In this document: in pieces, positions 10,433 through 45,600 of the stretch
Layout of the letters: each line of letters begins with the position of its first letter
How positions within the stretch are numbered: position 1 is the first letter of the stretch
Assembly (NCBI GenBank): GCA_043228905.1
Contig: JBHGNT010000002.1
Location: 26,536,001-26,600,000 of the forward strand
Direction of reading: 5' to 3'
DNA from: Azolla caroliniana
Taxonomy: Eukaryota > Plantae > Polypodiophyta
Length of the DNA: 64,000 bases
Position numbers and translations under genes: made by a program
The notes under the pieces: generated by a model
What the model saw: the letters and a program-made list of their open reading frames with translations, nothing else
Database searches by the model: none
Told to the model about the DNA's origin: nothing

Positions 10433-10902
10433 TACCCGGAGAGAGATCCGGATGCGGAGACTATATTTGTAAATAGCCCGAAAGTCATATGTGTATAAAT
10501 ATGACTTAGGGCAAACAGTTTAGGTTGTTGTTGCTCATTTTCTGTTTTCACTCAGAGGGAGCGAAGTGAAGAGAGCAGCCGAGAGAGAGAGAGAGAGGGA
10601 GAGAAAGGAAGAGGTCGACGCCTCTGTGTATTACCGACGCCTGTGGCGAAGACAGTGAGCTCAAGGTTGTTGCCTTGTGGCTTCACCATTGTACATCTCT
10701 GTTCATAGTGATAGTTGGAGTTTGAGGACTCCCGTGGTTTTTCCCATTTACGGTTTTCCACGTAAAACATCCTGTGTACTCTTCTCTCTACTGAACGGTG
10801 CATTTTGTATTTCCCGTTTTTCTGTGAGTTGGTCCTATCCCTCGGTTGTGGCCGAGCACTGTTGTTTAACAGAGTGGTATCAGAGCACGGTTAACACAGA
10901 AA

Positions 10903-15508: not shown

Positions 15509-18500
15509 TCATTCCTCGCCCGTCGGTTCTTCCTCGTTTTCGGATCGTTCGTCACTGCCGACCAGGAGAGCCGGGTCGGGCTCGTCGTCGTGTCGCTTCT
15601 TGAACGCTTTGATCCGCTTCCCTGCAACCGGTATCGCCATTCTCGTGCCGTCGAGTTCCGCCAGGTGATATGTCCCGTTGCCATTGGCGCTCCGTACCGC
15701 GTAAGGCCCAAACCACCTTCGTGCGAACTTCCGTGTGGCTCGGTGCTGGTTGTCGAGGCTGCTGTCGTAGACGAGCACCCAGTCACCTTCTTCGATTTTC
15801 TTCGGTCGGAGCCGGTGCGTTCGGTCGAACCTGGCTTTGTTCTTTGCCCTCGCCACCCGGAGCCTCTTCGTAGCCAGTTCCACGTCCTCCGGTCTCCGCT
15901 CGAGTTGTCGTATACGCGCGGCCAACAACTCCTCCCGGCTCATCTCGTCCCTCCAATCGACCGTTGCCCATGAGGGGATCGTCCGTTCCATTGGCATGAT
16001 AGGCTTCTGGCCGAACATGAGCTCCGTCGGCATGTACCCGGTTACCGAACTGTGCGTGGTCCGGTCTGCCCACAAAGCATAAGGTAGCAGCCGCGGCCAG
16101 TTACCGACTTGGCCTCCGCATGCCCGAACCAACGCCTTGACGATCGGCCCGTGTCCGCGCTCCACCTTCCCATTCGCCTCCGGATTGTACGCAGTGGTGA
16201 GCGAGAGCTTAACTCCGAGCCGGTCGAACAGCTCCGCGGCTTCTTCGGTGTCCAACTCCCCTCGATCAGCCACGATCTTCCCGACGCACCCGTACCGGCA
16301 TATCACGTCCTCGATTAGGAACCGGCATACGGCCGTGGTCGTTTTGTTCGGAAGGGCCCGGCCTTCCACCTGGTTCGTCAGATCCTCCCGTGCTAGGACC
16401 AGGTACCGCATCTGTCCTACCCCCATTGGCATCGTCACCAGATCTACCATCCATTTGAAGTGGATGGTCGGAGGGTACGTGGGGTGAAGCTCGTCCCGAT
16501 GTTGGACTATGGAGTGCATCTGACAGCTCTCGCAAGTTGTCACGAACCGATGCACGTCCCGGTACTGCCCCGGCCACCAATACTTCCCCTTCAGTTTCTC
16601 AAACGTAGCCCATGTCCCACGGTGTCCAGCCCAAGGGCTGTCGTGGTAGGCCGTCAGCAGCTCCTCCTGTTCTTCCTTCATCGCCACCACCCGGAGCGGA
16701 GCGCCGTCCCTCTTCTTCGGGTGCTTCCATAGGTAGCCATCCCGGAGAAAGAACCGGTACGCTTTCCTCCGGATCCGGTTGGCCTCGTCCTTCGTCCATG
16801 ACGCATCGGGCGTCATTGTCTTCAAAAACCCACCGATCTGCAGCCACTCCCCGTCATACTTGCTCGCGTCGAAGTCGTTAAGCGCCGGAGTGCTTGTCCC
16901 GCCGGTTGTTACATACGCAGTCTCGAAGAAGTCCACGCCGACCTCTTCGTCCTCCGAGACCATGCCGCCCTCGTCCTCGAATCTCGCCCTTGAAAGCATG
17001 TCGGCCATGGCGTTGTCTTTCCCGGAAATGTGCCGTATTACCGGGTCTAGGGACTTGATGTACGCTATCCACCTGAGCATTGCCAGGTCCGGCGTCGCGC
17101 ATCCGGAAACCATGCCGAGAATCGGCATGCAATCCGTCTCTATGATTACCTCCGTCCCGATCAGATAGTCCTTGTCGGCCTTCACCGCCGAAACGATACC
17201 CCAGAGTTCGCGTTTAACCTGGGCGTATCCTCGCTGCCGTTCGCTGAGGACCTTCGCGCCGAATCGGATTGGAAACCGATTGCCGTCCCCGTCTTCTTGG
17301 TTGACGACCCACCCGATTCCGGTCGGACTCGTGTCAACCGTTATGTACACTGGGGTGCCCTTCCCGTAGACAGCCTTTCGGAGCGCCGGTGCTGCCGAAA
17401 GGGCCTCCTTCAGCTTCCGGACCGACTCCGCGTGCTTGTCTAGCCATTCGAATCTTCGCCCTTTCCTCAACAATCCGTATAGCGGCTCCGCAACGTGGGC
17501 GTAATGCGGGATCCATATGTGGTAGAATGCGCATGCCCCCAGGAATCTTCGTACTTCCGTGACCGAGCTGCAGTCGGGCTTCATCGCGGAGATGGCTTCT
17601 ACCTTTGCCGGAGACGGTTTCCGGCCATACGGCCCACATAAGTGTCCGACCACCATGATTTCTGACTGCCCGAAGGCCGACTTCTCCCCGGAGAAGGTGA
17701 GTCTCGCATCCTCTAGCCTTTGCAGCACCTTCTCGCAGTCGTCGATGTGCGTTGCCACGAATCGCCGGCATCCGTCCGGCCCGATCGTCTCGTCCTTTTC
17801 TTCCACCGGGCATCCCTTGATCGGGATGTCGTCCAGAAACGGCATGGTGATGTCCGGGATACAGTCCCTCAGAACCTTGTTCATCGCATTCACCATGTGG
17901 GCCACCGAGTTGGTCCCTCCTTGCGGCAGTGTACACATCCGAACTAGGCCGAGGGGAGTTCGCATCGTCGTAATGTCTCTGCTCTCCACGGCTAGCTGGA
18001 ACTGGTCGTACCCTGAGTATAGATCCCCGACCGAGTAAATTGACCTTCCGGCGAAGGCCTCCGCGAACTCGTCTATGGTCGGTCCGATCCCTGCGTTCCG
18101 AATGGTCACTCGATTGACCGGCTGCAGGTCATGGATGAAGCGCAACGAACCGTTTTTCTTCGGTACGGTAAACCATCGATTCGAATATGGGGCGCTCGAC
18201 GGCTCGAGAATTCCCATATCAACTTTCTGCCTCAGCAGCTCCATCAACTTCGGGATGTGAGCTCTCGGAACCGGGATTGGCTTGAGATTCCATGGTACAT
18301 GCGGTACCGTGAATATCACCATCGGCTCCACGATCGTCGGGTCGACGCACCCGATTTCCTCCGGCGAGAATGCGAAGCCTTTCCCGTGCCTTCCGAGCAT
18401 TCTCCGAAACCGGTCTTCCTCCGCCGGCAGTAGGAACCCGCCCCCACCAATTTTGAGCTCTCGGAGCGTCTCGTCGGTGAAGGTGTGTCCTATGCAGGCC

Positions 18501-18997
18501 GGATCTCGTAGACTAGGGTCCGATGCAACCCCTTTGATTCTCGATGCGCTGTCCTCCGGTAGGGGTGCCGCGACTGGCCTTACCTTCCGGTCCACAGTCT
18601 TGTACTTGGTGCTTGCGTGGGCCGTCCGAACTGACTCGAGCCCTCGACCGAAGTCCGCGATGACTCCGTACATCTCCTCGGAACACACCGGTATCGTCCG
18701 GTCTTCGTTAAGGCCTTCTTCGACTACCTTTCCCAGCATTCCCAAGGTGTCGTCGAATGAGACCGCCTCCACGGCTCCGTTGATTTCCTCGTCAGGGCCG
18801 AGAACTCCGCACGCTCGAAGTCTCCCCTCCGCCTTTGTCTTCTCTCGGCCGCCGATGCCGACTATCGTACACGCTCCGCTGTCGGAGAACAAAAATTCCC
18901 TACCTATGGTACAAGGTTTTATCGTACAGATGTGGGGTTTTTCCCGAGCATCCGGACTGTCGCGGCCCCACGCCTTGGCAGTCCTCTCTAAAAATCC
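15509..18997 (-). CDS. pol: D Pol (RT, RNase H, integrase), reached by -1 frameshift
   Basis: Frame is open from the GGATTTT slippery site to 15509. RT 'DLYSGYDQF..LPQG..PFLDD', RH 'VDTSPTGIG', IN 'HDSPWAGH..CESC..VDL..ADRGE..NGKVE', GPY motif; no chromodomain. Confidence 0.92.
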   Translation of the reverse strand, partial: GFLERTAKAWGRDSPDAREKPHICTIKPCTIGREFLFSDSGACTIVGIGGREKTKAEGRLRACGVLGPDEEINGAVEAVSFDDTLGMLGKVVEEGLNEDRTIPVCSEEMYGVIADFGRGLESVRTAHASTKYKTVDRKVRPVAAPLPEDSASRIKGVASDPSLRDPACIGHTFTDETLRELKIGGGGFLLPAEEDRFRRMLGRHGKGFAFSPEEIGCVDPTIVEPMVIFTVPHVPWNLKPIPVPRAHIPKLMELLRQKVDMGILEPSSAPYSNRWFTVPKKNGSLRFIHDLQPVNRVTIRNAGIGPTIDEFAEAFAGRSIYSVGDLYSGYDQFQLAVESRDITTMRTPLGLVRMCTLPQGGTNSVAHMVNAMNKVLRDCIPDITMPFLDDIPIKGCPVEEKDETIGPDGCRRFVATHIDDCEKVLQRLEDARLTFSGEKSAFGQSEIMVVGHLCGPYGRKPSPAKVEAISAMKPDCSSVTEVRRFLGACAFYHIWIPHYAHVAEPLYGLLRKGRRFEWLDKHAESVRKLKEALSAAPALRKAVYGKGTPVYITVDTSPTGIGWVVNQEDGDGNRFPIRFGAKVLSERQRGYAQVKRELWGIVSAVKADKDYLIGTEVIIETDCMPILGMVSGCATPDLAMLRWIAYIKSLDPVIRHISGKDNAMADMLSRARFEDEGGMVSEDEEVGVDFFETAYVTTGGTSTPALNDFDASKYDGEWLQIGGFLKTMTPDASWTKDEANRIRRKAYRFFLRDGYLWKHPKKRDGAPLRVVAMKEEQEELLTAYHDSPWAGHRGTWATFEKLKGKYWWPGQYRDVHRFVTTCESCQMHSIVQHRDELHPTYPPTIHFKWMVDLVTMPMGVGQMRYLVLAREDLTNQVEGRALPNKTTTAVCRFLIEDVICRYGCVGKIVADRGELDTEEAAELFDRLGVKLSLTTAYNPEANGKVERGHGPIVKALVRACGGQVGNWPRLLPYALWADRTTHSSVTGYMPTELMFGQKPIMPMERTIPSWATVDWRDEMSREELLAARIRQLERRPEDVELATKRLRVARAKNKARFDRTHRLRPKKIEEGDWVLVYDSSLDNQHRATRKFARRWFGPYAVRSANGNGTYHLAELDGTRMAIPVAGKRIKAFKKRHDDEPDPALLVGSDERSENEEEPTGEE

Positions 18998-21114
18998 TCT
19001 CGGTTTTCGGAACCGAGGGAATCGCGGTTACGTTCGTGGTTCGGCCGTACCGTCAGAAACTGGACCGAATGGCGCCCGTCTTGGCTTTTGACCCTTGCGT
19101 AGGCCGAACCATTGTCCAGCACTTTGGTCTCCATTCGCGCCGCCGTGATGTACGGCTCTCCCAGAATGACCGGATGCGAAGACGTCTCCTGCACGAAGAA
19201 GTGCTGGTCAATCTCAACGTCGCCGATCTTGACTCGCACATTCAGACAGGCCCCGTGCAGTTCCTCGGTGGCGCGCGTTGCTGCCCTTATTTTCCACCCG
19301 TGCTTGGTGTTGATCGGCCATTTGCCCTTCTTATAGAAGTCCATGGACATCAAATTGATCTCCGATCCGTGGTCCACCAAAGCTATCACCGGTTCCTGGA
19401 CATCGCCGATCTTCACCGGGGTTTCCGTGGTCGCTCGGGCCCAGTGTGGTCTCGAATAGTGGCTTTCCGCCCACTCGTCTCCCAGCGCCATGTCGTCTAG
19501 GTGCGTCGTCCGCACTTCCACCGGTCTTTCCGGTTCTGTCTCCGTCGACAGCCTCTTCCGTTTCACCAAGTCCACGATGGAGTCGTGGAACTCCTTCTTG
19601 GCGATTCCCAGCACCTCTCGTAACGACAGCTCCACCTTGCTGTCGAGGATCCGTTCCTCCAGGACCTTTCGTAAGTCTGTGGTCCTTTCTATCTCCGTCC
19701 CCAGACGGTACCCGCCCTTCTGGGGTTTATCTTGCGTACCGGCCCCGCCGGCTTCGTCCCGTCGTGGCCCGGACCGGGTCTCGTATCGTTGTGAGGGCCC
19801 GGTCGTCCCCGGTCTCCCCACCCGCTTCTCTTCTACCAGAGCCTCGTAGTTCTGGCAAGCGGCTTCCACGAAGCCCGTCCTTTCCTCGACCGGGTCGCTC
19901 CACCCGGTCATCTCCCGTACCCGTTTCTCCGCACGGTCCGATTCCTCCCCTTTAAGCCTTGCACCGGCAAGGCCTTCCAGCATCGTCGGCCAGAATCCGG
20001 CTTTGCTTTCCCTTCGGGCCTCGCCGCCCCCGACTCGAATGCCGGCCGACGCCGAGTAGTGGACGGTTTCCGCGTGTCGGGCCGCCGCCTCTTCCATCAA
20101 CCTTTTCATACCACCCTTTCCGTCGTTTCGGCTCAGGGCCCTTCGGGTGTCGCTGGCATGCACCCGTCCTTCCCACAGGTACACCACCCTGTTCCTCAGC
20201 GCCTCCGCGAAGTCGCCGCAGTCCTTCCGAATGTGGCCGACTTCATCGCACCACATGCACCTGTTTCCTGCCGCCGGCCGTCGGTCACGAGCCGGTTCGC
20301 CCCCTTCCCTTCGGGCCTGCGCGATTTGGAGGCCCTTTATCGCCTTCGTCAATTCCTCCAGCGCCGCTCCTCCGGTTGAGCCTCTGACTACGCCGGTCGA
20401 AGCCGAACCGGTATCCAACCACTCTCGGGTCTCTTCCTTTCGCACCTGTGGCGCTGGTTCGAACTTCCTTGCTGCGACCGAGCCCGACCCGGTCGCACCG
20501 TTATCCGCCCATTCTCGCCGTTTGTCGAAACGGCCACAGACCTTCCTGACAGCCGCCCAGTCGGTAGTGAGCCCGTCTTCGGTTTCCAGCAAGAGGTCCA
20601 CGTGCTCCCGATCCCGTTCGTCGACCGACTTGACAAACAGCAAGACCCGGCTCGTGTCCAGGATGGTTCTGTCGAGCGCCGAAAGGCGCGCAAAGTTTTC
20701 CTCGAACTCCCGGAGGAGTGCCGAAGCGTTTCTTCCCTTCCCCGGGGACTCCACCCATTCCATGAACCTTCGCTTCGAAAGCCGGAGCGCGTCGTCCAGC
20801 CCGTATTTCTCTAGGAGCCGACCTTCGAACTCCTCCCAGGTACGGCTCTCCGTCCGCACCTCGAGCACCTCCGCATGGATGCCCGGCATTGCGACTCGGG
20901 GAAATCCGGCAAGACGCCTTTCTTCCGGAATGTCCCGCATCAACATCTCCGCACCGTAGGACGCTAGATACTTCGTGGCATCCCTCCCATCGAACCGGCC
21001 GATCGTGCCGACGACCGCCTCAATAGCTCTGTCGAGGGCACCTGTGCCCTCGCGCGCGTTTACAATCCGATCCACGGCCGAAGCCATGGCCTCTGCAAGA
21101 TCCGACCCCCTCAT
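18988..21114 (-). CDS. gag: D Gag-protease (ORF1)
   Basis: Open frame with zinc knuckle CMWCDEVGHIRKDC and protease-like 'ALVDHGSEINLM...HPVILG'. Likely ATG at 'MRGSD'; the ORF-track GTG start lies inside the PBS. Confidence 0.88.
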   Translation of the reverse strand: MRGSDLAEAMASAVDRIVNAREGTGALDRAIEAVVGTIGRFDGRDATKYLASYGAEMLMRDIPEERRLAGFPRVAMPGIHAEVLEVRTESRTWEEFEGRLLEKYGLDDALRLSKRRFMEWVESPGKGRNASALLREFEENFARLSALDRTILDTSRVLLFVKSVDERDREHVDLLLETEDGLTTDWAAVRKVCGRFDKRREWADNGATGSGSVAARKFEPAPQVRKEETREWLDTGSASTGVVRGSTGGAALEELTKAIKGLQIAQARREGGEPARDRRPAAGNRCMWCDEVGHIRKDCGDFAEALRNRVVYLWEGRVHASDTRRALSRNDGKGGMKRLMEEAAARHAETVHYSASAGIRVGGGEARRESKAGFWPTMLEGLAGARLKGEESDRAEKRVREMTGWSDPVEERTGFVEAACQNYEALVEEKRVGRPGTTGPSQRYETRSGPRRDEAGGAGTQDKPQKGGYRLGTEIERTTDLRKVLEERILDSKVELSLREVLGIAKKEFHDSIVDLVKRKRLSTETEPERPVEVRTTHLDDMALGDEWAESHYSRPHWARATTETPVKIGDVQEPVIALVDHGSEINLMSMDFYKKGKWPINTKHGWKIRAATRATEELHGACLNVRVKIGDVEIDQHFFVQETSSHPVILGEPYITAARMETKVLDNGSAYARVKSQDGRHSVQFLTVRPNHERNRDSLGSENREDF

Positions 21115-21136
21115 CTTCTGCTCTTCTGCCGCCTCT

Positions 21137-21154
21137 TTCACGTCGGGTTCACCA
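21137..21154 (-). promoter_or_regulatory. PBS complementary to tRNA-Trp (also G at ~52928-52945 and H at 55855-55872)
   Basis: TGGTGAACCCGACGTGAA is the reverse complement of the plant tRNA-Trp 3' end ...TTCACGTCGGGTTCACCA (tRNA sequence from memory). Confidence 0.85.
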
Positions 21155-23303
21155 AGATGTGGGGGTTGCTACGCCCTTGCGTGCAGAAAGGAGGAGGGAC
21201 CACGGGGGTCTCGGACCGAAGAGCAAGAGAGAGAGAAGTAAGAGAGATAGACCCGATTACACAGAACCGAAGATTGCACCGGGACACGGCCCAACAAACA
21301 GAGATCACAAATAAACGCCGACGCAGATGGACGCAACAACGAAAGATATCTACTTCTGAAAGCAAGAAAATAACAGACTACAGTATTACAACCCACGGTG
21401 GGGCACGAAATAGATACTAACGAAAACGAACAGGGCGGCGAACAGATGCCGACCCCTGTATGTCGCGACGCACAGAAAGGGGGAAAACAGGTCGGAGGTG
21501 CTGCAGGACGCACTCGGGGCGTTCCACGGAACAGCACAAGCCTCCTCGAAACCTGCACAGGTACGCGATGGAGCAGAAGACAGAGAAAGCGGGAGTGAGA
21601 GAGAAGCCCCGAAATCGGTTCGGCAGCACTTCGTCCTCCCCGTGCGAGATATCTGCAACAGCTCTTTCCTGCTCCTTATATAGGCCGTTGAGCAGGCCTT
21701 CCTGTCAGCTTTATTCCCTGTCCCTTTTGTCAGGGATCTCCTCCGTTCTGCACGCATCCGCGTAGTTACGCCGCCGACTCGTACAGTTCGCGCGCGTGAC
21801 CGAAAAGACTGTTCGCGCGGTCTTTGTCTTCACTCGTGTTAGGGCCCGTTCCTCCCGATTATCCTCCTAATTCGATTCTATGTACAACTTGGAGCGTGCG
21901 CGTGTGAAGAACCGGTTCCTACGCCCCGGTGCGCCGATTCCGCTTAGGGACGGTTTTCTTCACGACAACGGTCGCGTTGTCAACCACGGAGGCGGAGTAC
22001 ATGGCGGCTGTTGAAGCCGGCAAGGAAATAATATGGATGAAGGACTTCATTAGAGAGCTCCGTATCCGGCAGGAGGAGTACCGACTCTACTGCGACAGTC
22101 AGAGTGCCATCCACCTTGCGAAGAATGCGGCCTATCACTCCCAGACGAAGCACATCCAGCGTAGATACCACTGGATCCGGGAAAGGATAGAGGACAAGGA
22201 GTTCGTGCTGACGAAGATCCACACGGACGAGAACGGGTCGGATATGCTGACCAAGGTACTTACACCCGACAAGCTGGAAGCATGCCGGAAGAGGATCGGA
22301 TTGGAGAGACATCCCATGCCGAAGTGAAGGGGGAGTTTGTTGGGATTTTCGGTCCCTCCGGATGAGATGTCCGGAGAAGAATGACGGCAGACCCGGTTAC
22401 GGAGCCGGATGATGAAGACCCCGGCTACGGAGCCGGATGACGAAGACCCGGTTACGGAGCCGGATGATGAAGACCCCGGCTACGGAGCCGGATGACGAAG
22501 ACCCGGTTACGGAGCCGGATGATGAAGACCCCGGCTACGGAGCCGGATGACGAAGACCCGGTTACGGAGCCGGATGATGAAGACCCCGGTTACGGAGCCG
22601 GATGACGAAGTACCCGGAGAGAGATCCGGATGCGGAGACTATATTTGTAAATAGCCCGAAAGTCATATGTGTATAAATATGACTTAGGGCAAACAGTTTA
22701 GGTTGTTGTTGCTCATTTTCTGTTTTCACTCAGAGGGAGCGAAGTGAAGAGAGCAGCCGAGAGAGAGAGAGAGAGGGAGAGAAAGGAAGAGGTCGACGCC
22801 TCTGTGTATTACCGCCGCCTGTGGCGAAGACAGTGAGCTCAAGGTTGTTGCCTTGTGGCTTCACCATTGTACATCTCTGTTCATAGTGATAGTTGGAGTT
22901 TGAGGACTCCCGTGGTTTTTCCCATTTAGGGTTTTCCACGTAAAACATCCTGTGTACTCTTCTCTCTACTGAACGGTGCATTTTGTATTTCCCGTTTTTC
23001 TGTGAGTTGGTCCTATCCCTCGGTTGTGGCCGAGCACTGTTGTTTAACACAAACTTGAGCTATACAAAGGGATAGTGTGAATACGTCCATTATACACTTG
23101 TATTCGACAATCCCCCGTAATGGGCGTATACATGGGTTATCTAAGATTACAGGTATAAACCTAGGTTCTCGGACATATCAGTTTTTGTTCGAGTCGGCAG
23201 GGTCTGAAGGCAGAAGACCGAACTGGTCTGGTCGGAAGAGTTGAAGCCAATCATTAAGGAACTGATGTCGGTTGTCCGAAACCATCCTGTGCTGTGTCCG
23301 GCT

Positions 23304-31585: not shown

Positions 31586-32350
31586 ACTAAAAATCACTCA
31601 ATATCTTCACCAAATCGGCATTCGAATGTCGAAATCGCACAACTCCATGTACATCTGAAACGAACCACACAACCCGATTGTCATTATGATTTACGTGGAT
31701 GATCTAGTAATTGGAGGAAAGGATCTAGCCAGGATCATTAAGGTCAAATCCCTCCTATCTGACAGATTCGAAATGAAGACCGGCATGAGATCTATTACTT
31801 TCTTAGCATAAAAGTAATTCGAACACTAGTCGGGATATTGATCTCTCAACGACACTACGTTCTCAACTTACTCTACAAGTTCGGAATGACCGAGTGCATG
31901 TTATTCCTTAGGGCCGGACAATGGCCTAACACAAGGTGTCTACGAAAGACACTTCACCAAAGGGGTGTTACGGCGAGATAACTTAAGACACAACGATTAA
32001 TCCGACTTAATTGGCTACTTAGCCATATGGCATTAACTTTACACATGTGTAAGATATAACAATTAATACAGAACGATAATCAATATGTGAAGATAAAACA
32101 AGAAGCTTACATTAATTCTCCGTTAAAGTTTTACATTGTAATCGGGCCTTTATATAGGTCATCGGTGCTGCGTACAAAACGTTGCCAACCGGCACCTGTT
32201 CGGAACCGGTCTGGATCCGAATCGGCATACCGATTCCGGTCCGTCCGTTCACTACTTAATTATAATCTATTCTACTTAATTAAAATAGATTCTGAATAAC
32301 AATCCCTTTCACATTTTGGTCTTTAACTCCTTTGCCGACCGGGTAACACA

Positions 32351-32367
32351 TGGCACGCCCGTGGGAC
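32351..32367 (+). promoter_or_regulatory. PBS-like site (tRNA-Arg UCU) at the PPT position of F, opposite strand to gag-pol
   Basis: TGGCACGCCC-GTGGGAC, 2 nt inside the LTR; matches the remembered plant tRNA-Arg PBS TGGCACGCCCGGTGGGAC with one gap. Confidence 0.7.
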
Positions 32368-32401
32368 AGTATCTTGTACGTCGAATCCCACTATCTGGCC
32401 C

Positions 32402-35189
32402 TTAGCCTTCGTCCAAAATATCCAGAATACTTTGCTCCAGGGTATCCAATGGTTCTTCGGAACTCTGTTGTTGTTGTTGTGGGTGATGTTGCAGTGGCTC
32501 TGGCTCCTCCGACTATTGCTCCTTAGATGTCGTTTGTTCGACTCCCGGTACCGGCGGTTGTGGCGGTGATTCCTCAGTTAGTTGCTCTGCTGGATTTGAC
32601 TCCGGTTGACTCGCCCTAGCCTTGTCTCCGTCCGGTCCTTGCTTCGGTGATGGCTCCTCATCGCTGAGGTTGACGGTCGCCGCCTGCTTTGCTTCTTCTC
32701 CCCGTAGCCTGGTCCGCTCATAACTTTCAAACTGGATTTGAGCATCCAGTCCATCATCGTCTAGATGTGCTACCAATTGCCGGACCACTGCTGACTATTC
32801 CTCTGCCAGAGTTACAAAATCTTCGGCTAACTCATCTCTTACGGCAGTGAAGTCCTCCATTGTTAGTATGTAGCAGTCGTCGCCATCCTTCTGCCGGTTT
32901 TCCGTGTCCGCCCTTAGCAACTGGAGCTCGGCTGTGTGTTTTGCCCATTTGTCCCACCATTGCGCGGAGCTTTCGTCAATCAAGCATTTTGTCTTGTTCC
33001 TCCATGCCTAAACGATGAACTGGATCCTCTCCAATCCCATCTTTGATTTGTCCTCCACGGCTTGCCGTTCGTCCTTCAATTGCTTGATCAACGCCACCGT
33101 ATTCGCCTCCTGCTCCTTGTAATGTGACAATTGGTTTTGATAGGTGTTCTGCAACCTCTGCAATACCATTGTCGCTCTTTCTTTCTCTTCATAATGCTGC
33201 TTATGGAGCTCCATACGTTCTTGCGCGGCTTCCTCCAATAGCGTGGTTCTTTCAACCCGTTCCTCTGCTAGCGCCGTCTCAGCTCGATGCACCTCCTACC
33301 AGAGCTCTACCATCTTCTCATGCTGTTTCTAATGCTCCGTATCTAGGTGCTTGTAGTCTTGGTGCAGGTGCTCAAAATCATCGGTCTTCTGATTCAGCTT
33401 TTGGTTGAGTTGCCGACGAGCGTGGTCTTCCCGATCCTTCTGTTGACGGAGTTCTTCTTTAAGTCTTTCGATCTCTGTTTCCGCCATCCATCGCAGCTTA
33501 TCCTTTTCTTGCAGCGCCTTCTCTTTCTCCTCCTTCAGCCGGTCATATGCCTGATGTCCTTTCCGCAGATTCTCTTCTGCCCGACGGAGGTTCTCAGCAG
33601 TCTTTCTTTGCTCTTCTTTTGCCGCTTTCTTCAAGTCCCCCTCTCGGGTGCGTAATGCTTCCTGTGCGGCCAATTCATCTCTCAATTCAGCAAGCTCTTT
33701 TGCTTGCGCCGCCACTATCTTCGGGACTGGTTCCGTCTTCGGGGTCTTATTGCTATGTACAAGTGCCAATGTTTCTTTATTCTGTACATCTACCGGAGTC
33801 ACTAGTGCTTGGATCAGTGGTCCGGTTAAGGCCATTTTGGCCAATTCTTTTGTGGCCAGGTCCAAGTCTTGTTCTAAGCTCCGGATCCTTGACCGGGCCG
33901 TCTCTAGTTCTCCGGTTGTGACGAGCAACCGGTCCATCTGCGCTTTCTCTTCCGCCTCTATGTAGTGTACCACTCCGGCAATCTGTTCTCCAATCCACCG
34001 GAGCCATTGGCTATCGGTGCCCTGTTGTTGCGTCTGCCCGGAGGGTTGGCTGTTGGTGTCGCCGGCCAGTGGTCGGTTTTGTCTGGTTGCGTCGAGCTGC
34101 AACTTTGTCTCTGGTTGGTGACCACTTTGCCGTTCCGATTCCGGCTCCGTTGGCCGCTTCGCCTTTGATTGCGCTTGCCCTGCTGGTGGGATAGACGATT
34201 GTACTTCCGGCGCTTGCATTTCGGGCCTTGCCGTATCCTGACCCGCTGGTAGAGTTTGTTGTGCAGGGAGCTCTGTGACCGGTTCTGGTTCCATCCTTGG
34301 TGCGGGCTGCTCAGTGTGGGGTACATGCGTTCCATCCTTCTTTGGGTTCGAACGCTTCCCGGCCTGTTCGGAGGTGCTCTAACGGTTCCTCCTCCGCTTC
34401 CTCCTCCTGAGTCCCGATGTTGATTTTTGTTGCCAAGGGGTCCGACGCTTGTTGAACCGGTCGGTGAAGCCTGATCTTGATCGGCCGTGCCGGTGGCTCG
34501 TCCTACGTTTCCGCCTGCCGCTTCCTATTGGCGCGCTCCTTTGCCGCCTGGTCTGTATCGGCCGCCTTCCCTTTGGTTGCCTTAGAAGCCAACAACTGCT
34601 GCCGTTTCGAGGCCGTTTTCGAGGTGCCTTCGGTTGTTCTTCCTCGCTTCGTGGTCTTGACGGGCTCGATAGGTGGGGCCAATAGGGTAAGCCATTGCGC
34701 CATTGCCGTCCATATCTTCCGACCCTCCTTGCCTCTGACAGAGTCGATGGCCGCACAGAGGCCATCCGCAATCAGTACCAGCCAGTCCACCTTCACGCCT
34801 TCATATGTTGCTATGATTAAGCCAGCCCGGTTCTGAGGCATGCACGGGGGTCGAGGGTATACATGTCCAAATTCATGGAGCACACGGGCAATCTCTCGGA
34901 ATAGTGGATCTTCGTCGCCCTGTGTCCGGTAGGCCTTGCTGGCCAGAGAGTATTCCCCAAAATATTTTCGGAGCTGTGCAGGGGTAGGGTTGTCGATAGT
35001 GAAGATGCCCCCCTCCGGAAGGCCAATCAAAGCATGGGTGGCCTCCTCCGTGATTAGTTCCGTGTTGATCTCCTTTACTATCTTCTCCGCCTCCCGGTGC
35101 GGTGGAGCCTCCATGATTGTGAGGAAACCTTCAAACCCGTGTTGCCTTAGCCACTTCTTGGCTGCTTCAGAGAGTGCTTGGCAGTCCAT
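32402..35189 (-). pseudogene. F extra ORF (~930 codons): globular N-terminus plus long coiled coil
   Basis: ORFs 33329-34294, 33008-33292, 32795-32983 and 32513-32788 share one frame separated by single stops and run on to TAA at 32402. ORF 34503-35189 joins via a frameshift. E/K/Q/L/R heptad-rich. Confidence 0.7.
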
Positions 35190-35572
35190 GGCTTCTTCGA
35201 GGTCGATGAGCGCTGGTGAGGGGTGTGTTTGAGGAGGCTGTGTGTGTGGGCTCGCGTTTGCTGATCTTCAATCGCTTGTGCTCGTTTGTGCTCCTTGGTT
35301 CGCGAAATGTGAAGGTTTCTTGTTGCATGTTGCCGCCTTTTTTTTTTTTTTTTGACTCGCACGTGTGCACGTCGTGTACTAAAATAGAATGACGTGCCAT
35401 GTGGCGGCGGTTTAATATCCTATTAATAGCCCACTACGTACCTTTTCAAAGTGCTTGTTCACTCCTTGTTCTTGCATGTGTCCGTTCACCCCTCGCCCTT
35501 GCATGATTTACTTTGATTTGATTTGATTTGATTTGATTTTTTATTTTTATTTTTTTGATAAAAATGGTTTGG

Positions 35573-36810
35573 TTAATTCGCATCCGGTCCCACTGGACCC
35601 TTATCCGGATTGTGGGAGTTGCCGGCTGCTGGACTGCTTGCCGTCACATCGTTCTTGTTGTTTGCCGGCTCGTGCTCCCTCTTACCGGCTTCGCGCTTAC
35701 TGATTGCTAAACGTGTTGCCGTCTCTTCTGACTTACCGGTGTCCGGTTCTGTGTCGACCTTTACTTGTTCAAATGGGTTTCTTGGCATGGGTCCATTGTA
35801 TTGTTTGAGTCGGAACCCATTGACCCATTTACCCAGAACCTCGCCGACGAGTGTCCCTAATTGGTAGGAACCGTTGAACTCACACGTAATCCAGTATGGT
35901 CCGGTCCATCGAAACTGTAGCTTCCCTGACATCTTCCCCATCCGGGTCTGGAATACTAGTACCGGCTTACCGATTCCGAACATCTTTTCGTTCCCTTTCC
36001 GGTGATGATCCACGAATGCCTTCCTTCGCCGCTGCTCTAGTTCTAGGTGCATGATGCTGTCTAGCCGGTGTTCTTCCAATTCGCACAACGCGGCTAACCG
36101 GATAGCTTCTGATTCCTTCTCATTTAGGCGTTCCCGAATCTGTATTCGTAAACTCGGTACCTGGAACTCTACCGGCATCACTGCTTCCAATCCGAATGCT
36201 AGGCGAAACGGTGTTGTGCGGATACTTGTCTTATATGCCGTTCGGTAGGCCCAGAGTGCACTGTGTAGCTTTGTATTCCTCTGCGACCGTACCATCCGTT
36301 GCCATTTCTGTTGTAACTCTAAACAACTCTGCATCTGGAAAGTCATCTTGGACGCCGTCACTGGTTTTGCCGGAATCTAACCGGCTCAAATAATCTGGTA
36401 CCGCATGTTGTATGCCGGGTCGGTGGAATATCTCGAACTCAAATTCTTGTAATAGTAACGTCCACCGGGCCAACTTACTGGTGAGTGATGTTTTGGACAC
36501 CAAGTAAAGGAGCGCCGAAAGATCTACGTGAAAGGAAAATTTCCTTCCCAGCAGATAATGTCTAAACTTGGTGACACTGTAGATCATACCCAAGGCCTCT
36601 CTTTCCGTTGTGGAATAATTACGTTCTGCTTGGGACAGCTTCCGGCTAGCATAATACACTGGCCGGTACCATTTCGGTTCTGTAAGATGCATGAGCGCGC
36701 TCCCGATTGTGATGTCAATCCGGAGGTTGCACCACCGGTGCTTGTGACAACAGTACTTTTAGTGCTTGGTAAGCTTGGTCCTTTGTGTCCGTCCATCGAA
36801 AAGGTGTCCA
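35573..36810 (-). pseudogene. pol: F pol remnants (RT end, RNase H, integrase C-terminus)
   Basis: 'RPVYYASRKLSQAERNYSTTEREALGMIYSVTKFRHYL' and 'LHSALWAYRTAYKTSIRTTPFRLAFG..RWTGPY..VNGFRLK'; internal deletions. Confidence 0.85.
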
Positions 36811-39800
36811 ACACGTTTCGGAGGTTCGTCTGAACCTGATATCAACTGATCGGGCTACACGGGTAGCATCCAGAACGGTGTTATGAAGTTCAGCAAAGGG
36901 AGCTTGATTGTGGCTCGGGCCCGGAAGGTAAACACGCTGTACTTGATGAATGCCCGGTTATGTCCGGAGGAAGTGAACGTGGCATCCGACACTGCCGGTG
37001 AGCTGTGGCACAAGAGGCTGTGTCACATGAGCGAGAAGGGGATGAAGAGGCTTGCAGACGACAACCGCATTCCAGTGAAGAATGTGCACTTGGAGAAGTG
37101 CACTAATTGTCTGGCCGATAAGCAAAACTGGACCTCCTTTCGACCAAGGCCACCGATGAGACGTAATGCACCACTGGAGTTGTTGCATACTGATGTGTGT
37201 CAAGTGGACACGAAGTCACATGCAGGATCGCAGTACTTCGTGACGTTCATAGATGACCACAGTCGGAAGCTGTGGGCCACACTGTTGAAGACGAAGGATC
37301 AGGTGCTATCCGTCTTCAAAGAGCTCCACGCGAGGGTGGAAAGAGAAACCGGCCGGAAGCTGAAGGCGGTTCGAGCAGATAACAGAGGTGAATACCAGGG
37401 GCAGTTCGAGGAGTACTGTCGCTCGAAGGGAATCCGACTCGAATTTACTGTGCCGAAGACGCCGGAACTAAACGGGCTGGCCGAGAGGATGAACTAGACA
37501 GTAATGGAGAGGGCCCGGAGTATGCTGGCGCATGCAAAACTACCCAAGAAGTTTTGGGCTGAGGCACTGTCGACGGCGACATATGTGATAAACAGATCAC
37601 CCTCAGTACCCTTGGACGGAGACACACCACAGAGAGTCTGGACCGGTAAGGAAGTGTCCTACCGGCATCTGAAGGTATTCGGGTGTCTCGTGTACGTGCA
37701 TGTAGCTAAGGACCGAAGAGGAAAGTTGGATCCAAAGACCCGGCCATGCATCTTCCTCGGTTACGGCCACAATGAGTTCGACTACCGAGTGTGGGACCTG
37801 GTCGACAAGAAGGTATTCCGGAGTCGAGATATTATCTTCATGTAGGACAAGATGCTCGCCGACTGGGAGTCAGAGAAGAAGATAATGAACTCCGAGTCGA
37901 CCGGTAAGGATCGATTCTACGATGAGCAGGCCCAACCGGCAAGAGACCGGTTAGCACTCGAGGAACCAGCCGGTTACGGTGAGGATACAGAACCGACAGA
38001 AGAAGAAGTAGAGGAAGCTGAAACCGGAACCGGCGAATACCCCGAATCAGATTCGGATGAAGAGCAAATGGAGGAGCCGGTTATCGAAACCTAGAGACGA
38101 AGATATCCTCTCAGAGAGAGAAGGCCCCCCCGGAGATTCCCAGATGCAGAGCATGTGCTGCTAACCGATGAGGGGGAACCAGAAAGCTTCGAAGAAGCGA
38201 AGGATGACACCCACAGCCGCAAATGGTTAAGTTCCATGCAGAATGAGATGGATTCCCTGCATGAGAACCATACGTACGAATTGGTGGAGTTGCCGAAAGG
38301 AAAACCGGCACTCTGAAACAAGTGGGTGTACAAGTTGAAACCGGGAGATGCCGGCAAACCCCCGAGATACAAAGCCAGGATCGTGGTGAAGGGGTTCTAG
38401 CAGAAGAAGGGCATGGACTTCGATGAGATATTTGCCCCGGTAGTAAAGATAACCTCCATCCGGACGGTGCTGAGTATAGCGGCAAGCATGGACCTCGAGG
38501 TAGAGCAGCTGGACGTGAAGACGACATTCCTTCACGGTGACCTCGAAGAGGAGATCTACATGCAGCAACCAGAAGGATTCGTGGAGAAAGGGAAGGAGCG
38601 CCTGGTTTGCTAGTTGAAGAAGAGCCTGTACGGACTGAAGCAGGCTTCCCAACAATGGTACCGGAAGTTCGACTCCTTCATGGCTGATCAAGGGTACCAC
38701 AAGATGCAGGCCGATCACTACGTGTTTGTGAAGAAGTTCGAAGGAGGCGACTTCTTGATACTCCTTCTGTACGTGGACGACATGTTGATCGTCGGATGGA
38801 ACCAAGCCAGAATAGGGATGCTGAAGAAGGCTTTCAATCGAACTTTCGCGATGAAAGACTTGGGTCTGGAAAGACAGATGCTGGGGATGCATATCATCCG
38901 GAACCGGCCAACGAAGCAAATGTGGCTGTCACAAGAGAAATACGTGACAAAGGTGCTTCAACGGTTCAACATGTTAGAAGCGAAACCGATCGGATCGACA
39001 CTCCCGGCAAATTGCAGATTATCCGGTAAGCAAAGCCTGAAGACGAAAGCAGAGAAGGCTCATATGATGAAGGTTCCATATGCCTCTGCCGTCGAGAGCT
39101 TAATGTACGCAATGGTGTGTACCCGACCGGATATAGGATATGCGGTCGGAGTGGTGAGCCAGTTTATGAGCAATCCCGGCAAGGAGCACTGGAACGCGGT
39201 CAAATGGATACTCTGGTACTTGAAGGGCACTTCAAATATGTGTCTCCGATTCGGCTCTGGTAAACCTCAACTTGACGGTTTTACCGATTTAGACATGTCG
39301 GCTGATGTGGATACCAGCTGGTCTACATCCGGGTATGTAATGACATACACAGAGAGAGCGAGTAGAAGATCGAGAGTTCGCGTTGACGAAGATCCACACG
39401 GCCGAGAACGGGTCAGATATGCTGACCAAAGTACTGATACCCGACAAGCTGGAAGCATGCCGGAAGCGGATCAGACTAGTAAGACATCCCATGCCGGAGT
39501 GAAGGGGGAGTTTGTTAGGAAACAGGTCCCTCCAGATGGGAAGTGAGAAGAGCAGTGTCGGTGAGATTCGGATGAGGAGTACCCAGCTACGGAAGACCCG
39601 GTGAGAACCGGATGAGGAGTACCTGGTAAGAGCCGGATGGTGAAGGCCCGGTGAGAAGTGCTCACCGGATGAAGGGACATATTCGTAAATATGTTTTCTG
39701 AGAGTCCATCGGGGCTATATTTGTAAATAGCCGAAAATTCATATTAGTATAAATATGACTTAGGGCAAACTTAGAATAATAAGTTGTTTTGTCATTCTTG

Positions 39801-40125
39801 TTGGTGCAAGATTAGAGCGCGTAACTGTGTACAGAGAGAGTGAGAGAGAGGAAGAGGTCGTTGCCTTTGTTGTAACTGCCGCCTATGGCGAAGATAGCAA
39901 GCTCGAGGTCGTTGCTTCGGTGTCTTACTATTGTACATTCTAATATAGTGATAGTTTGCAGTCTGTGGGCTGCCGTGGTTTTTCCCTAGTTTGGGTTTTC
40001 CATGTTAACATCCTGTGTACTCTTCTCTTCACCGTGTCGTGCGTTTCATTCCCCGTTTTTCTGTGTATGATTCTAAGCTCGGTTGTGGCCGAGCGTTGTG
40101 CATAGGGAACATGTAGTTCCTGTCA
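36811..40125 (+). mobile_element. Copia I, 5'-truncated, decayed (J/C/K family)
   Basis: IN-RT fragments 36883-39350 with many stops and an RNase H deletion near 39350. PPT GAAGGGGGAG; 3' LTR 39513-40125 homologous to the J LTR. Confidence 0.88.
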
Positions 40126-41002
40126 AAACTGTTGAATGTTCTCCGTTGGTTCCTGCCGGATACTGTAAAATAAGCCTACCATTTCCCGTTGGTCCATCTC
40201 CTTGTGAAAGAAATGCAAAATTTTTGTCTTTAATGTTTCAAACGTGGGATGGTGTTGGGATCTTGTGTTCAGTGCCATCTGGCGGCCGGTCCCTCCAAGG
40301 TCATGCCGAACTCTGCCCTTTTTGAGCATTCCTCTTCGGCTGCATTTAAGCGTTGGGACACATGGTTTGCCTCCCAGGTCTGTTGAAACGCATGGACGTG
40401 GGCTTCCGCGTCCGGATCATCCCGATATTTGGGATATTGGAACGACATATCGTTGTCTGGTGTCGGTACACGGGTTGGTGGTGGTTCCTCCCCCTCTTTC
40501 GGTGTCGGAGGTTTTCCCGGTCCTCTGTCGCCATTAGAGGTCTTTCCTGCTCCTCTTTCAGTGTCAGAGGCTTCTCCTCCTCGACTTCCGGTGCCAGAGG
40601 TTCTAGCCTTGTCAATTTTGGTTCTAGTGTCGGCAAGGTATCTGACTCCTCGTCCTCTAGTCCATCTGGGGTGTTGTTATTGCTGCGGTAGTTCGTCTGT
40701 GCGCTGTATTCCCCATCCGAACTTGATTCAAATGCTGAAAATGCTTCGGATTCGCCTTCGCTCGCTGCCAATGCCTGGAGAAGGGATTCCGCTTCCCGGA
40801 GGCTGCTTAGGCTGCTTCCTTTGTCCGGGTAGTCATTTTGTGGTAACCGAAGTGACTCTTTGGCCACTCTCCGGATCACCTTGGAAAATGAGCGATCCGC
40901 TCTGATTTCTTCTACTGCTTGCTGGAAAGCCTCACGCTTCCTTAGTCGTTCAACAAGTCTCCTTGCTCGCTCCGTAACCGGGTCGTTCATTGGTCGTGTC
41001 AT
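40126..41002 (-). pseudogene. gag: F gag N-terminal part
   Basis: ATG about 55 bp inside the 5' LTR boundary. After a frameshift reads 'TFETLKTKILHFFHK...YSIRQEPTENIQQF', a retrotransposon gag-domain pattern. Confidence 0.7.
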
Positions 41003-42603
41003 CCATTCCTGCCACTGTTCGCTGCGATTGTGCAGGAATCATGGTCACCAAAAACTGTGTTATTCCTTAGGGCTGGACAATGGCCTAACACAGGGTGTCT
41101 ACGGAAGACACTTCACCAAAGGGGTGTTACGGCGAGATAACTTAAGACACAACGATTAATCCGACTTAATTGGCTACTTAGCCATATGGCATTAACTTTA
41201 CACACGCGTAAGATATAACAATTACTACAGAACGGTAATCAATATGTTGTCGAGGTATTCCTCGTGGATGCGTGGAATGAGGCGGGACCTCGGGGGTCTT
41301 GTACCGAAGAGCAAGAGAGAAAGGAGAAGGGAAGGGACCCACTACGTGCGAGCGTAGATCCACAGGGACACGGCCCTTCGACACGAAGACGTGAGCGGGG
41401 AAACCAACACAGAGAGGCACGAAGGTATGTATGTATATATTAACAGAGACAAACAACAAGAAGCACAAAGTCGGTTACAACCGAACAGGCCGGCGAACAG
41501 ATGCCGATGCCTGTTCGCAACGCTCAGAAAGAAAAGAGTAGGTTGGAGGTGTTGCTGGAAGCACTCCGGCATTCCTCAGAGCAGCGCGAGCCTCCCCGAA
41601 AACCTGCACAGAAAGAAGCTACAGAGTATGGAAGAGAGAGAAGCCTTCGGCCGACAACCCGACAACACTTCGTCCTCTCTATCCGCGATCCGTTCCTCCT
41701 CCTCGTTTCCCCCCTTTTGTAGGCAAGAAAGGAGCCGTTTCCCATTAACTCCCTTCCTACCGAATCTACGTACCTAGGATCTTCTATGTTCCTAATTCTC
41801 TCTTATATACAACATAAGGCGTACGTGCACGAAGAGCCGGTTCCTACGCTCCGGTGCACCGATTCCACTTGTGGACGGTTTTCTTCGCGACATCCACCCC
41901 CACCTAACCGCGCATCCACCGGCATGCACCAAATTGAGTTGGGACGGAGAAAACCGGTCCAGCCCTCATTCCTCGCCCGTCGGTTCTTCCTCGGTTTCGG
42001 ATCGTTCGTCGTCCCGGTCCAGGTTAACCGGATCCGGCTCGTCGTCGTGACGCTTCTTGAACGCTTTGATCCGCTTCCCAGCTACCAGTATCGCCATTCT
42101 CGTGCCGTTGAGTTCCGCCAGATGGTACGTCCCGTTGTCGTTGGCGCTTTGTACCACGTAAGGCCCGAACCACCTTTTTGCGAACTTCCGTGTCGCTCAG
42201 TGCTGGTTGTTGAGGCTGCTGTCGTAGACTAGCACCCAGTCGCCTTCCTCGATCTTCTTCGGTCGGAGCCGGTGCGTTCGGTCGAACCGGGCTTTGTTCC
42301 TCGTCCTTGCTTCCCGAAGCTTTCCCGCAGCCCGCTCCACGTCCTCCGGCCTTCACTCGAGCTGACGTATACGCGCCGCTAGCAGTTCCTCCCGGCTCAT
42401 TTCGTCTCTCCAGTCCACGGTTGCCCATGAGGAGATCGTACGTTCCGTCGGCATGATCGGCTTCTGCCCAAACATGAGCTCTGCCGGCATGAATCCGGTT
42501 ACCGAACTGTGCGTAGTTTGGTCAGCCCACAACGCGTAAGGCAGCAGCTGCGGCCAGTTCCCGACTTGCCCACCGCATGCCCGAACTAACGCCTTGACGA
42601 TCG

Positions 42604-45600
42604 TGTCGAGAATCAACGCTCCGATTCACCTTCACCGCTCGGCCACAACCGAGAAATCACGAATCAATGCAGCAGAAAATAGGAAACACAGAGAAAGACA
42701 CGATAACACAGGGATTAACGTGGAAAACCCTATACGGGAAAAACCACGGGAGTGCAAGACTCCAAACCAAAACTATGCACAGAGAAATATACAATGGCGA
42801 GCTGCAAGGCGACGACCTTGAGCTCGCTATCCTCGCCACAGGCGGCGGTATTACACAGAGGCGTCGACCTCTCCCTCTCTCACGCTCTATCTCTCTCACG
42901 GCTGCTCTCTCTTCACTCCTCTTGAGTGGAAAAACAGAAAAATGAGTAGCAACATAAAACTATTTGCCCTAAGTCATATTTATACACATATGACTTAGGG
43001 CTATTTACAACTATAGCCTCAAGGGCCCTTGGCAAACATATTCACAGATATGTCCCCGCATCCGGATCTCTCTCCGGGTACATTCGTCATCCGGCTCCGA
43101 AGTCGGGGTCTTCATCATCCGGTTCCGAAACCGCAACCGGGCTTGTCGTCATTCATCTCCGACATCCGACCATCCCATCCGAAAGGGACCGTAATCCCAA
43201 CAAACTCCCCCTTCACTTCGGCATGGGATGTCTCTCCAATCCGATCCTCTTCCGGCATGCTTCCAGCTTGTCGGGTGTGAGCACCTTGGTCAGCATATCC
43301 GACCCGTTCTCGTTCGTGTGGATCTTCGTCAGCACGAACTCCTTGTCTTCTATCCTTTCCCGTATCCAGTGATATCTTCGCTGGATGTGCTTCGTCCGGG
43401 AGTGATAGGCCGCGTTCTTCGCAAGGTGGATTGCACTCTGACTGTCGCAGTAGAGTCGGTACTCCTGCTGCCGGATACCGAGCTCTCTAATGAAGTCCTT
43501 CATCCATATTATTTCCTTGCCGGCTTCAACAGCCGCCATGTACTCCGCCTCCGTGGTTGACAACGCAACCGTCTTCTGCAGCCTCGACTGCCATGAAACA
43601 GCTCCCCCTGCATACGTCATCACATACCCTGATGTGGACTGGCTGGTATCTGCATCAGCCGACATATCCGAATCGGTGAAGCCGTCGAGTTCGGGCTTAC
43701 CGGAGCCGAATCGGAGGCACACGTTTGCCGTGCCCTTCAGGTATCGGAGTATCCATTTGACCGCGTTCCAATGCTCTTTGCCGGGATTGCTCATGTACCG
43801 GCTCACCACTCCGACTGCATATCCTATGTCCGGTCGGGTACACACCATTGCGTACATCAAGCTCCCGACGGCAGAGGCATATGGTACTTTCATCATGTCC
43901 TCCTTCTCAGCCTTTGTCTTGGGGCTTTGCTTGCTGGACAGCTTGCAGTTTGCCGGGAGTGTTGACCCGACCGGTCTTGCTTCCGACATGTTGAACCGAT
44001 GAAGCACCTTTGTCACGTACTTCTCCTGTGACAACCACAACTGCTTCTTCTTCCGGTCCCGGATGATGTGCATCCCTAGTATTTGCCTCGCCGGACCCAG
44101 GTCCTTCATTGAGAAGGTTCGGTGAAGAGCCTTCTTCAGCATCCGTATCTTGGCCTGGTCCTGTCCGACGATCAACATGTCGTCCACGTACAGGAGGAGT
44201 ATTAGAAAGTCTCCTCCTTCGAACTTCTTCACAAACACGCAGTGATCGGACTGCGTTTTGTGGTACCCTTCGTCTGTCATGAAGGAGTCGAACTTCCGGT
44301 ACCATTGCCGGGGAGCCTGCTTCAAACCGTAGAGGCTCTTCTTCAACCGGCATACCAGGTGCTCCTTCCCTTTCTTCTCGAATCCTTCCGGTTGCTGCAT
44401 GTAGATCTCTTCTTCGAGGTCACCGTGAAGGAATGCCGTCTTCACGTCCATCTGTTCTACCTCGAGGTCCATGCTTGCCGCTATGCTCAGCACCGTCCGG
44501 ATGGAGGTCATCTTCACTACCGGGGCAAATATCTCGTCGAAGTCGACGCCCTTCTTCTGCTGAAACCCCTTCACCATGATCCTGGCTTTGTATCTCGGGG
44601 GTTTTCCGGCATCTCCCGGTTCCAGCTTGAACACCCACTTGTTACGGAGTGCCCGTTTTCCTTTCGGCAACTCCACAAGTTCATATGTGTGGTTCTCATG
44701 CAGGGAATCCATCTCCTCCTGCATAGCACTTAACCACCTGCGGCTATGGGTGTCATGCTTCGCTTCTTCAAAGCTCTCCGGCTCCCCCTCGTCGGTTAGC
44801 AGCACGTGCTCTGGTTCCGGAAATCTCCGGGGAGCCCTTCTCTCTCTTAGAGGATATCTCCGTTCCGGAGCTTCGGTAACCGGTTCTTCCGATTCTTCTT
44901 CATCCGAATCCATTTCGGGATCGGGGCCGGTTCCGGTATCATTTTCAGCTTCTTCGGCCGGTTCTGTTTCTTCACCGTCTTCGGCCGGATCTTCGAGTGT
45001 TAACCGGTCCCTTGCCGGTCGGGACTGCTCCTCGTAGAGTTTATCCTCACCGGTCGACTTGGAGCTCTTCATCTTCTTCTCCGACTCCCAGTCGGCGAGT
45101 GTCTTGTCCTCCATGAAGATGATATCTCGACTCCTGAATATCTTCTTGTCGACCGGGTCCCATACTCGGTAGCCGAACTCGTCGTCGCCGTAACCGAGGA
45201 ATATGCATGGCCGGGTCTTTGGATCTAGCTTTCCTCTCCGGTCCTTTGCCACATGCACGTATGCGAGACACCCGAACACCTTCAGATGCCGGTAGGATAC
45301 TTCCCTACCGGTCCACACTCTCTGCGGCGTGTCTCCGTCCAAAGGTACTGAGGGTGATCTGTTTATCACGTATGTCGTCGTTGACATCGCCTCAGCCCAA
45401 AACCCCTTGGGCAATTCCGCATGCGCCAGCATACTCCGGACCCTCTCCATTATGGTCCGGTTCATCCTCTCGGCCAGCCCGTTCAGTTCCGGCGTCTTCG
45501 GCACAGTAAACTCGAGCCGGATTCCCTTCGAGCGACAGTACTCCGCGAACTGCCCCCCGGTATTCCCCTCCGTTATCCGCTCGTATCGCTTTCAGCTTCT

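Follow-up and report, generated by a model that had tools for sequence, protein, structure and literature searches.

Immediately before its 3' LTR the Ty3/gypsy element F carries, in the position of the polypurine tract (PPT), a conserved copy of the 3' end of tRNA-Arg(UCU). Judged from the sequences of F and its relatives, the element would represent a lineage of plant Ty3/gypsy retrotransposons without a PPT, in which a second host tRNA-Arg(UCU) primes the plus strand; we assign this reading a probability of about 0.6. In its wider form, held with the same confidence, a widespread, high-copy LTR lineage of non-seed plants would have dropped the PPT. Here tRNA-Arg would start both strands, and a three-way junction of the tRNA, the minus-strand DNA and a hairpin looped out at the m1A58 step would be the plus-strand origin.

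Priming of the plus strand from the PPT is described as a core step of retroviruses and LTR retrotransposons in the pertinent sections of PMC5371799. A successful lineage with a tRNA-shaped site instead of a PPT would mean that reverse transcriptase and RNase H can use another primer, and F-type elements would allow the requirements for a plus-strand primer to be tested directly. A second tRNA, a self-primer that mimics a tRNA and an antisense genome all depart from the textbook cycle. Searches of largely open-access full texts turned up neither a tRNA-primed plus strand nor an LTR lineage with two primer binding sites (PBS) and no PPT. Annotation tools would miss elements of the F type or turn them round if they depend on a PPT or take the orientation from the best PBS.

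Structure of element F

The window (the whole stretch of DNA that was analyzed, 64 kb) is a nest of LTR retrotransposons, in which element F spans positions 31899-53857. Its LTRs are 450 bp long, have TG...CA ends and lie in direct orientation; the pair is about 95% identical, with 7 mismatches in 190 positions and 15 in 262. Since the pair is flanked by a 5-bp target site duplication, GTGCA (31894-31898 on the left, 53858-53862 on the right), F is a true insertion. The 3' LTR occupies 31899-32348 (minus strand). The 5' LTR is split by a nested gypsy element (41248-53593) into an inner piece at 41058-41247 and an outer piece at 53596-53857, both on the minus strand.

The coding region of F is decayed. 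It comprises a frameshifted 5' part of gag (40130-41038), for which relative L038 provides a Retrotrans_gag match, and a broken pol remnant (35573-36800) with RNase H (PF17917, E 4.6e-26) and integrase, the integrase core being partly deleted. An extra 3' ORF (32400-35290) is broken by stops and frameshifts in F; it is about 1000 aa long and open in L031 and L038. The gag, RNase H, integrase and extra ORF of F are all located on the minus strand, and the original assignment of this strand to gag, pol and the extra ORF and of 31899-32348 to the 3' LTR was confirmed in coordinates and orientation. Because a 5'-truncated copia element (36801-40127, plus strand) stands in place of the missing protease and RT region, this copy of F is dead. 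No tRNA gene was found within the 64 kb.

A tRNA-Arg(UCU) end in place of the polypurine tract

On the sense strand, the 15 nt that precede the spacer of 2 nt at the 3' LTR contain 7 purines with a longest run of 3, compared with 11 to 14 purines out of 15 in all six other LTR elements of the window; the original statement that the sequence before this LTR is not purine-rich is thus borne out. In plus-strand direction the last LTR position is 32348, and CA (32349-32350) and TGGCACGCCCGTGGGAC (32351-32367) follow. On the minus strand the two nucleotides form the spacer between the LTR and the CCA with which the sense-strand copy of the tRNA end terminates. The predicted PBS-like geometry of LTR, CA and motif was found to be correct, both in its 2-nt spacing and in its coordinates.

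The 17-nt motif is the complement of the 3' end of tRNA-Arg(UCU). In the supplement rows of PMC8482286, ArgTCT of Arabidopsis is represented by 3' fragments with lengths of 18 and 23 nt. Against the 18-nt tRF-3 TGGCACGCCCGTGGGAC lacks one base and matches at the other 17, as had been anticipated from a match to tRNA-Arg(UCU) with one gap. The match resumes past a 13-nt insert (32368-32380) in a second module, which is complementary to the T-loop and the 5' strand of the T-stem (32381-32391, plus strand); if the insert is left out, agreement with the Arabidopsis tRF-3 of these rows extends to 22 of 23 nt. The tRNA copy was therefore correctly recognized in its 17-nt part, but it is longer than originally described, the hairpin and the T-arm module having been overlooked. 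Assuming equal base use, the chance of finding the 17-mer at one fixed place is about 6e-11.

In standard tRNA numbering, the motif corresponds to tRNA positions 59-76 less one base. The insert is located between A58 and G59, and the missing base is the one at the joint of T-stem and acceptor stem. A58 is the methylated base (m1A58) at which reverse transcriptase stops.

A scan of a viral collection with the motif pattern resulted in one match, a tRNA-Arg(UCU) gene. This gene lies in the phage-type contig L001, and its end is identical to the motif apart from one base. The Rfam search of 32200-32600 returned nothing at E values up to 10. A pattern of 18 letters that includes the extra base had no match in the window, since it cannot match a site from which this base is missing. 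The supplements of PMC7827920 and PMC11658184 contained no matching tRNA string.

Conservation of the junction among relatives

Scanning a metagenome collection with the motif pattern yielded 39 matches in 38 contigs. Contig L010 was excluded from the family counts as a different element, which leaves 38 sites in 37 contigs and, together with F, 39 sites. L010 has at 1061-1109 a plain 18-nt tRNA-Arg site including the base that is absent from all F-type sites; this site is located 4 nt from the LTR and has a 23-nt gap. The contigs were found by the motif pattern itself, with PPT-keeping relatives outside the reach of the scan; 37 of the 38 come from a single accession series and many are repeats collapsed in assembly, which means that they do not represent 37 independent hosts. 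No tRNA gene was present in 38 of the 39 loci examined.

The distance between motif and LTR is 2 nt at all 39 sites (38 sites of relatives and F), with the sequence AACA in 38 cases and AACC in one. A spacing of 2 nt also separates PPT and LTR in the four copia elements of the window. The insert measures 13 nt at 37 sites and 14 nt at two, and the base missing relative to the tRNA is restored at none of the 39. There is no purine tract in F or at the 38 sites of relatives: within 50 nt before the LTR the longest purine run of the relatives is 3 to 5 at 36 sites and 6 and 8 at the remaining two. A normal PPT in the relatives had been named as evidence against the original prediction; these relatives, selected by the motif as they are, keep the motif and have no PPT. 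Their LTRs belong to at least three types, and the LTR of F has no blastn match to the second of these.

As the pattern fixed both tRNA modules, conservation of the modules was checked separately with decayed copies and with the depth of public sequencing runs. Complete decayed copies in L004, L009 and L032, which the pattern had missed, keep the 13-nt spacing and the second module. In public runs of four labelled organisms the bin containing the motif was the deepest of 30 in all four runs; its summed depth of 105,000 to 236,000, compared with less than 10,000 in most interior bins, is a measure of depth and not of copy number. A narrow depth analysis revealed no indel at 1% or more and ten changed positions, eight of which are C>T or G>A changes at no more than 8%. 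The absence of indels and the predominance of C>T and G>A changes indicate conservation of the primary sequence itself, which is what one would expect if the site pairs with an invariant partner. A change at 32372 of F, which breaks one pair of the insert hairpin, is absent from nearly all copies in the public runs.

Coding content and placement of the F group

Among the 38 contigs examined, 21 match F proteins, and in all 21 the genes run opposite to the motif strand; four others have unrelated matches only and 13 have no match. In L031 and L038, gag, pol, the extra ORF of about 1000 aa, the motif and the LTR follow each other in this order. The Pfam scan of L038 identified Retrotrans_gag, a zinc knuckle, RT, RNase H and integrase. 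All four catalytic carboxylates of the RNase H are intact in this contig, and its pol gave no Pfam match to archaeal RNase H. The extra ORF of L038 (3319-6327) encodes 1003 aa, and neither this ORF nor that of F has a Pfam match. Among the Atlas look-alikes of its N-terminal part are clusters named Transposase_32 (0.85) and ATHILA (0.84), all named ones being below 0.9 and serving as leads only; the C-terminal part resembles a long charged helical region. In L012 (sense 3-4000) an F-type element is interrupted, right ahead of the extra ORF, by a gypsy element that brings a PPT and an LTR of its own. An exchange of pol in L012 was considered and rejected: the contig contains a nested insertion of the other gypsy type of the window.

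Direct LTRs with a target duplication, a tRNA PBS after the 5' LTR (nine F-type contigs) and the order gag, RT, RNase H, integrase (from the Pfam scan of L038; F retains the gag 5' part, RNase H and integrase) are all traits of Ty3/gypsy elements that F or its relatives show; no protease family was matched at E 0.05. A PPT before the 3' LTR, which also belongs to these traits, is found neither in F nor in its family relatives. F works like, and is, a Ty3/gypsy element except for the PPT.

The nearest named proteins are from a fern (59% identity over RNase H) and from liverworts (40-45% over pol), and the nearest named pol proteins are 34-45% identical to the F group. The fern and liverwort matches make a non-seed land plant the probable host. 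In trees of RT, RNase H and integrase the F group forms a clade of its own, apart from angiosperm elements with and without archaeal RNase H. It did not group in either tree with the Athila-like clade, by which we mean angiosperm proteins without PF13456, but a common clade with them is not rejected by the AU test (p 0.121). With the aRH group it appeared as sister at 89/85, unstarred, in a tree of 19 rows, and outside that group in a quick tree of 55 rows.

By the traits listed in the relevant part of PMC6317226, the F group is a non-chromovirus on the OTA side that deviates from Athila in one trait, the PBS type, and from Tat in its defining trait. With the OTA elements Athila and Tat (TatI-III, Ogre, Retand) described there it has in common the 5-bp target duplication and the extra 3' ORF, and a tRNA-Arg PBS occurs in Ogre, Retand and TatIII as well. 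Like Athila it has no archaeal RNase H, but the PBS of Athila is mainly for tRNA-Asp, Asn or Ala, in contrast to Arg in the F family (PMC6317226). The pol of Tat carries an archaeal RNase H, which the F group does not have (PMC6317226). Of the link to Tat/OTA-type elements that had been drawn from the PBS, the tRNA-Arg site stands, while the Tat-defining archaeal RNase H is absent. Phygy elements, with a 4-bp NCGN duplication and a tRNA-Trp PBS according to the same part of PMC6317226, differ from F with its 5-bp duplication and Arg sites. This part of PMC6317226 mentions no group without PPT or with two PBS.

Comparison with Ty3, as far as it is covered in the sections of PMC5371799 on priming, shows the same LTRs, gag-RT-RNase H-integrase order, tRNA-primed first strand and primer site 2 nt from the LTR. 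The Ty3 plus strand is primed from a 12-nt purine tract encoded by the element, whereas F has at this position a tRNA-Arg copy with 7 of 15 purines. Ty1 and Ty3 have a bipartite PBS with two segments that read the acceptor end and the T arm, in Ty1 with a small internal loop in between (PMC5371799). The complementarity of those segments to the tRNA lies in the genomic RNA and is used for the first strand (PMC5371799), whereas the two modules of F are complementary on the strand opposite to gag-pol and lie beside the 3' LTR.

The 5' site, a second LTR family and the direction of the TATA boxes

The 5' junction is covered by nine F-type contigs. All nine have a 7-nt spacer followed by TGGCGACCAC, eight in the exact form and one with a single change. 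TGGCGACCAC matches an Arabidopsis Arg/CCG fragment over 11 nt (Table 1 of PMC3221849) and ArgTCG over 10 nt. The corresponding site of F (41040-41050, minus strand) differs from TGGCGACCAC by two changes of the CpG type. The original prediction had described this end as LTR, CA, GTTTT and TGG, with no PPT. What F has there is a CpG-decayed form of the ordinary 11-nt tRNA-Arg(CCG/UCG) site of its family, separated from the LTR by 7 nt (41051-41057).

A second LTR family was found among the motif contigs (L002, L004, L011, L015, L023, L026, L034, L035 and L039 are among its members). It has LTRs of 330-380 bp and interiors of 1.5-3.6 kb without gag or pol matches. A 10-nt tRNA-Arg(UCU) site follows the 5' LTR after 2 nt (10 contigs), compared with the 7-nt spacer of F-type elements. 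Both tRNA sites are kept in this family, and there is no purine run at either end (10 contigs). That non-coding units keep both sites suggests that both are needed in cis. Units of this family are often arranged in tandem with shared LTRs, which may reflect collapsed assembly, and no complete copy with a target duplication was found among them.

The 3' motif of the second family is the exact complement of its 10-nt 5' site (duplex of -22.3 kcal/mol). Elements of the F family pair poorly between their ends, with a broken duplex of -8.9 kcal/mol. Pairing in cis between the ends was discarded as a general rule.

A TATA-like box directed towards gag-pol sense is located in the 3' LTR of F at 32147-32158 (minus strand). 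It faces the short 5' site in F itself and in the LTRs of 10 of 11 F-type contigs, in accordance with the earlier observation that the best TATA box of the LTR is on the gag-pol strand. All eight second-family LTRs examined have the box in this direction too, and their other strand gives no match. F-type LTRs also give weaker, AT-rich matches in antisense direction, and three LTRs of other types have no match; the pattern matched none of the six control LTRs, so that the control is empty.

The hairpin in the insert

The insert forms a hairpin of 4 bp with a 3-nt loop, and 97 of the 100 cells are paired in an alignment of 25 distinct rows. Both sides change in three of the four pairs, that is, the hairpin covaries. 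Its score was reached by none of 500 shuffles and controls slid along the sequence scored lower, but the rows are related and these values are not a probability. In three rows the outer pair is G-U on the sense strand and A-C on the antisense strand. This is a small point in favor of a hairpin on the sense strand; the same change is also the commonest one in methylation-type decay.

When the last 30 nt of the tRNA-Arg(UCU) from L001 were co-folded with the antisense strand, 25 to 29 of the 30 tRNA bases paired in all 25 rows. In 22 of the 25 rows the predicted structure included the covarying hairpin and was a three-way junction. These co-folds use RNA-RNA energies, and the L001 tRNA is a stand-in which shares 22 of its last 23 nt with the Arabidopsis fragment and is not the host tRNA. 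The sense RNA by itself formed the hairpin in 6 of 25 rows with no common fold, and on its own neither strand of the motif folded better than shuffled sequences.

Plus-strand priming

Priming of the plus strand by a host tRNA annealed to minus-strand cDNA was one of two options in the original prediction. It is the best supported of the readings, and the mechanism, deduced in every priming step from the sequence, is likely. The sense RNA would be packaged, and the minus strand would start from tRNA-Arg on the short 5' site. After the first jump the minus strand would copy the motif and RNase H would strip the RNA. Once the DNA is exposed, a tRNA-Arg(UCU) could anneal to it through some 17 nt at the tRNA 3' end and through 8-11 nt in the T arm; one tRNA base would bulge out, and the 13-nt insert would form a looped-out hairpin between positions 58 and 59. 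Reverse transcriptase would extend the CCA end across the 2-nt spacer into U3, which would leave the usual two extra bases for the integrase, and the primer would be removed by RNase H, as in the case of a PPT. A tRNA on DNA is a substrate of RNase H and could be cut before it is extended. This sensitivity is the main difficulty for a second tRNA as primer; that bulge and hairpin protect it is a guess.

The original prediction did not consider that the element could encode its own primer, which is possible although unlikely. The element RNA would mimic the tRNA 3' end, RNase H would cut after the CCA, as it does in the removal of a tRNA primer, and the resulting piece would prime the plus strand in the manner of a PPT. 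The 2-nt spacing is the same as that of a PPT, the sense RNA is already hybridized at this position, which would make an annealing step unnecessary, and the three G-U rows speak for the sense strand. A T-stem-like pairing in cis can be formed in 17 of 25 rows; the other eight break the outer T-stem without compensation (its 3' side was fixed by the search pattern). Moreover, no fold is common to the families, and none of five sense folds is clearly above shuffles (z -1.96 to +0.47). The identity to a real tRNA beyond the insert and the position of the insert at the 58/59 step are left unexplained. Self-priming in Tf1/Sushi, Tcn1 and TAR, as treated in the corresponding passage of PMC6317226, is a likewise unusual primer route and relevant to this alternative, but there it replaces the first-strand tRNA and not the PPT.

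We consider a packaged genome of opposite sense to gag-pol, the other option of the original prediction, improbable. First-strand synthesis would in this case use the long split site as its PBS, in the manner of Ty1, and the second strand would start at the short site or at the A run of that site. The long site does have the classic PBS geometry and the split form known from Ty1 (PMC5371799, section on priming), and with tRNA sites at both ends the DNA alone is nearly symmetric. Split first-strand sites of acceptor end and T arm on RNA, known from Ty1 (PMC5371799), fit an antisense genome too, which counts against priming by a second tRNA. The conserved, normal tRNA site at the 5' end and the direction of the TATA box in two unrelated LTR families disfavor the antisense genome, the TATA direction being the main counterpoint (10 of 11 F-type contigs and F; 8 of 8 in the second family). 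Second-family units have no A run. That the missing base is restored at none of the 39 sites, with no indel in the depth analysis either, is a weak argument against an antisense genome, since Ty1 and Ty3 do not copy the PBS from the tRNA (PMC5371799).

There is a slim chance that the site binds a tRNA or a tRNA fragment for packaging, circularization or regulation, while another RNA remnant primes the plus strand. The exact complementarity of the two ends in the second family (-22.3 kcal/mol) and the existence of an 18-nt ArgTCT tRF-3 in Arabidopsis (supplement rows of PMC8482286) are compatible with such a role, but the ends of the F family barely pair (-8.9 kcal/mol), and the start of the LTR needs a precise primer 2 nt away, which is exactly where the motif is situated. 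Although F is internally rearranged, with a copia remnant and its RT lost, a one-off chimera or inversion with a motif left over from another element is refuted by the direct LTRs with their 5-bp duplication, the recurrence of this junction in 37 contigs whose LTRs are of at least three types, the gene orientation in 21 of 21 contigs and the high depth in four labelled organisms.

Other elements of the window

Copia elements at 10160-23049, 42604-47917 and 56583-61967, nested with gypsy elements, have an ordinary PBS and PPT and served as PPT controls. The gypsy elements at 14628-21967 and 41248-53593 have a G-rich PPT and a PBS unlike that of F, and they are flanked by 4-bp target duplications (ACGG/ACGG and ATGT/ACGT). 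This NCGN type of duplication fits the Phygy traits given in PMC6317226. An open frame of 431 aa at 1913-3208 (minus strand) with a weak C-terminal DUF761 match (E 0.0098) is probably a host gene. The gypsy element at 14628-21967, with 810-bp LTRs that are 100% identical and an open pol frame of 1172 aa, is very young.
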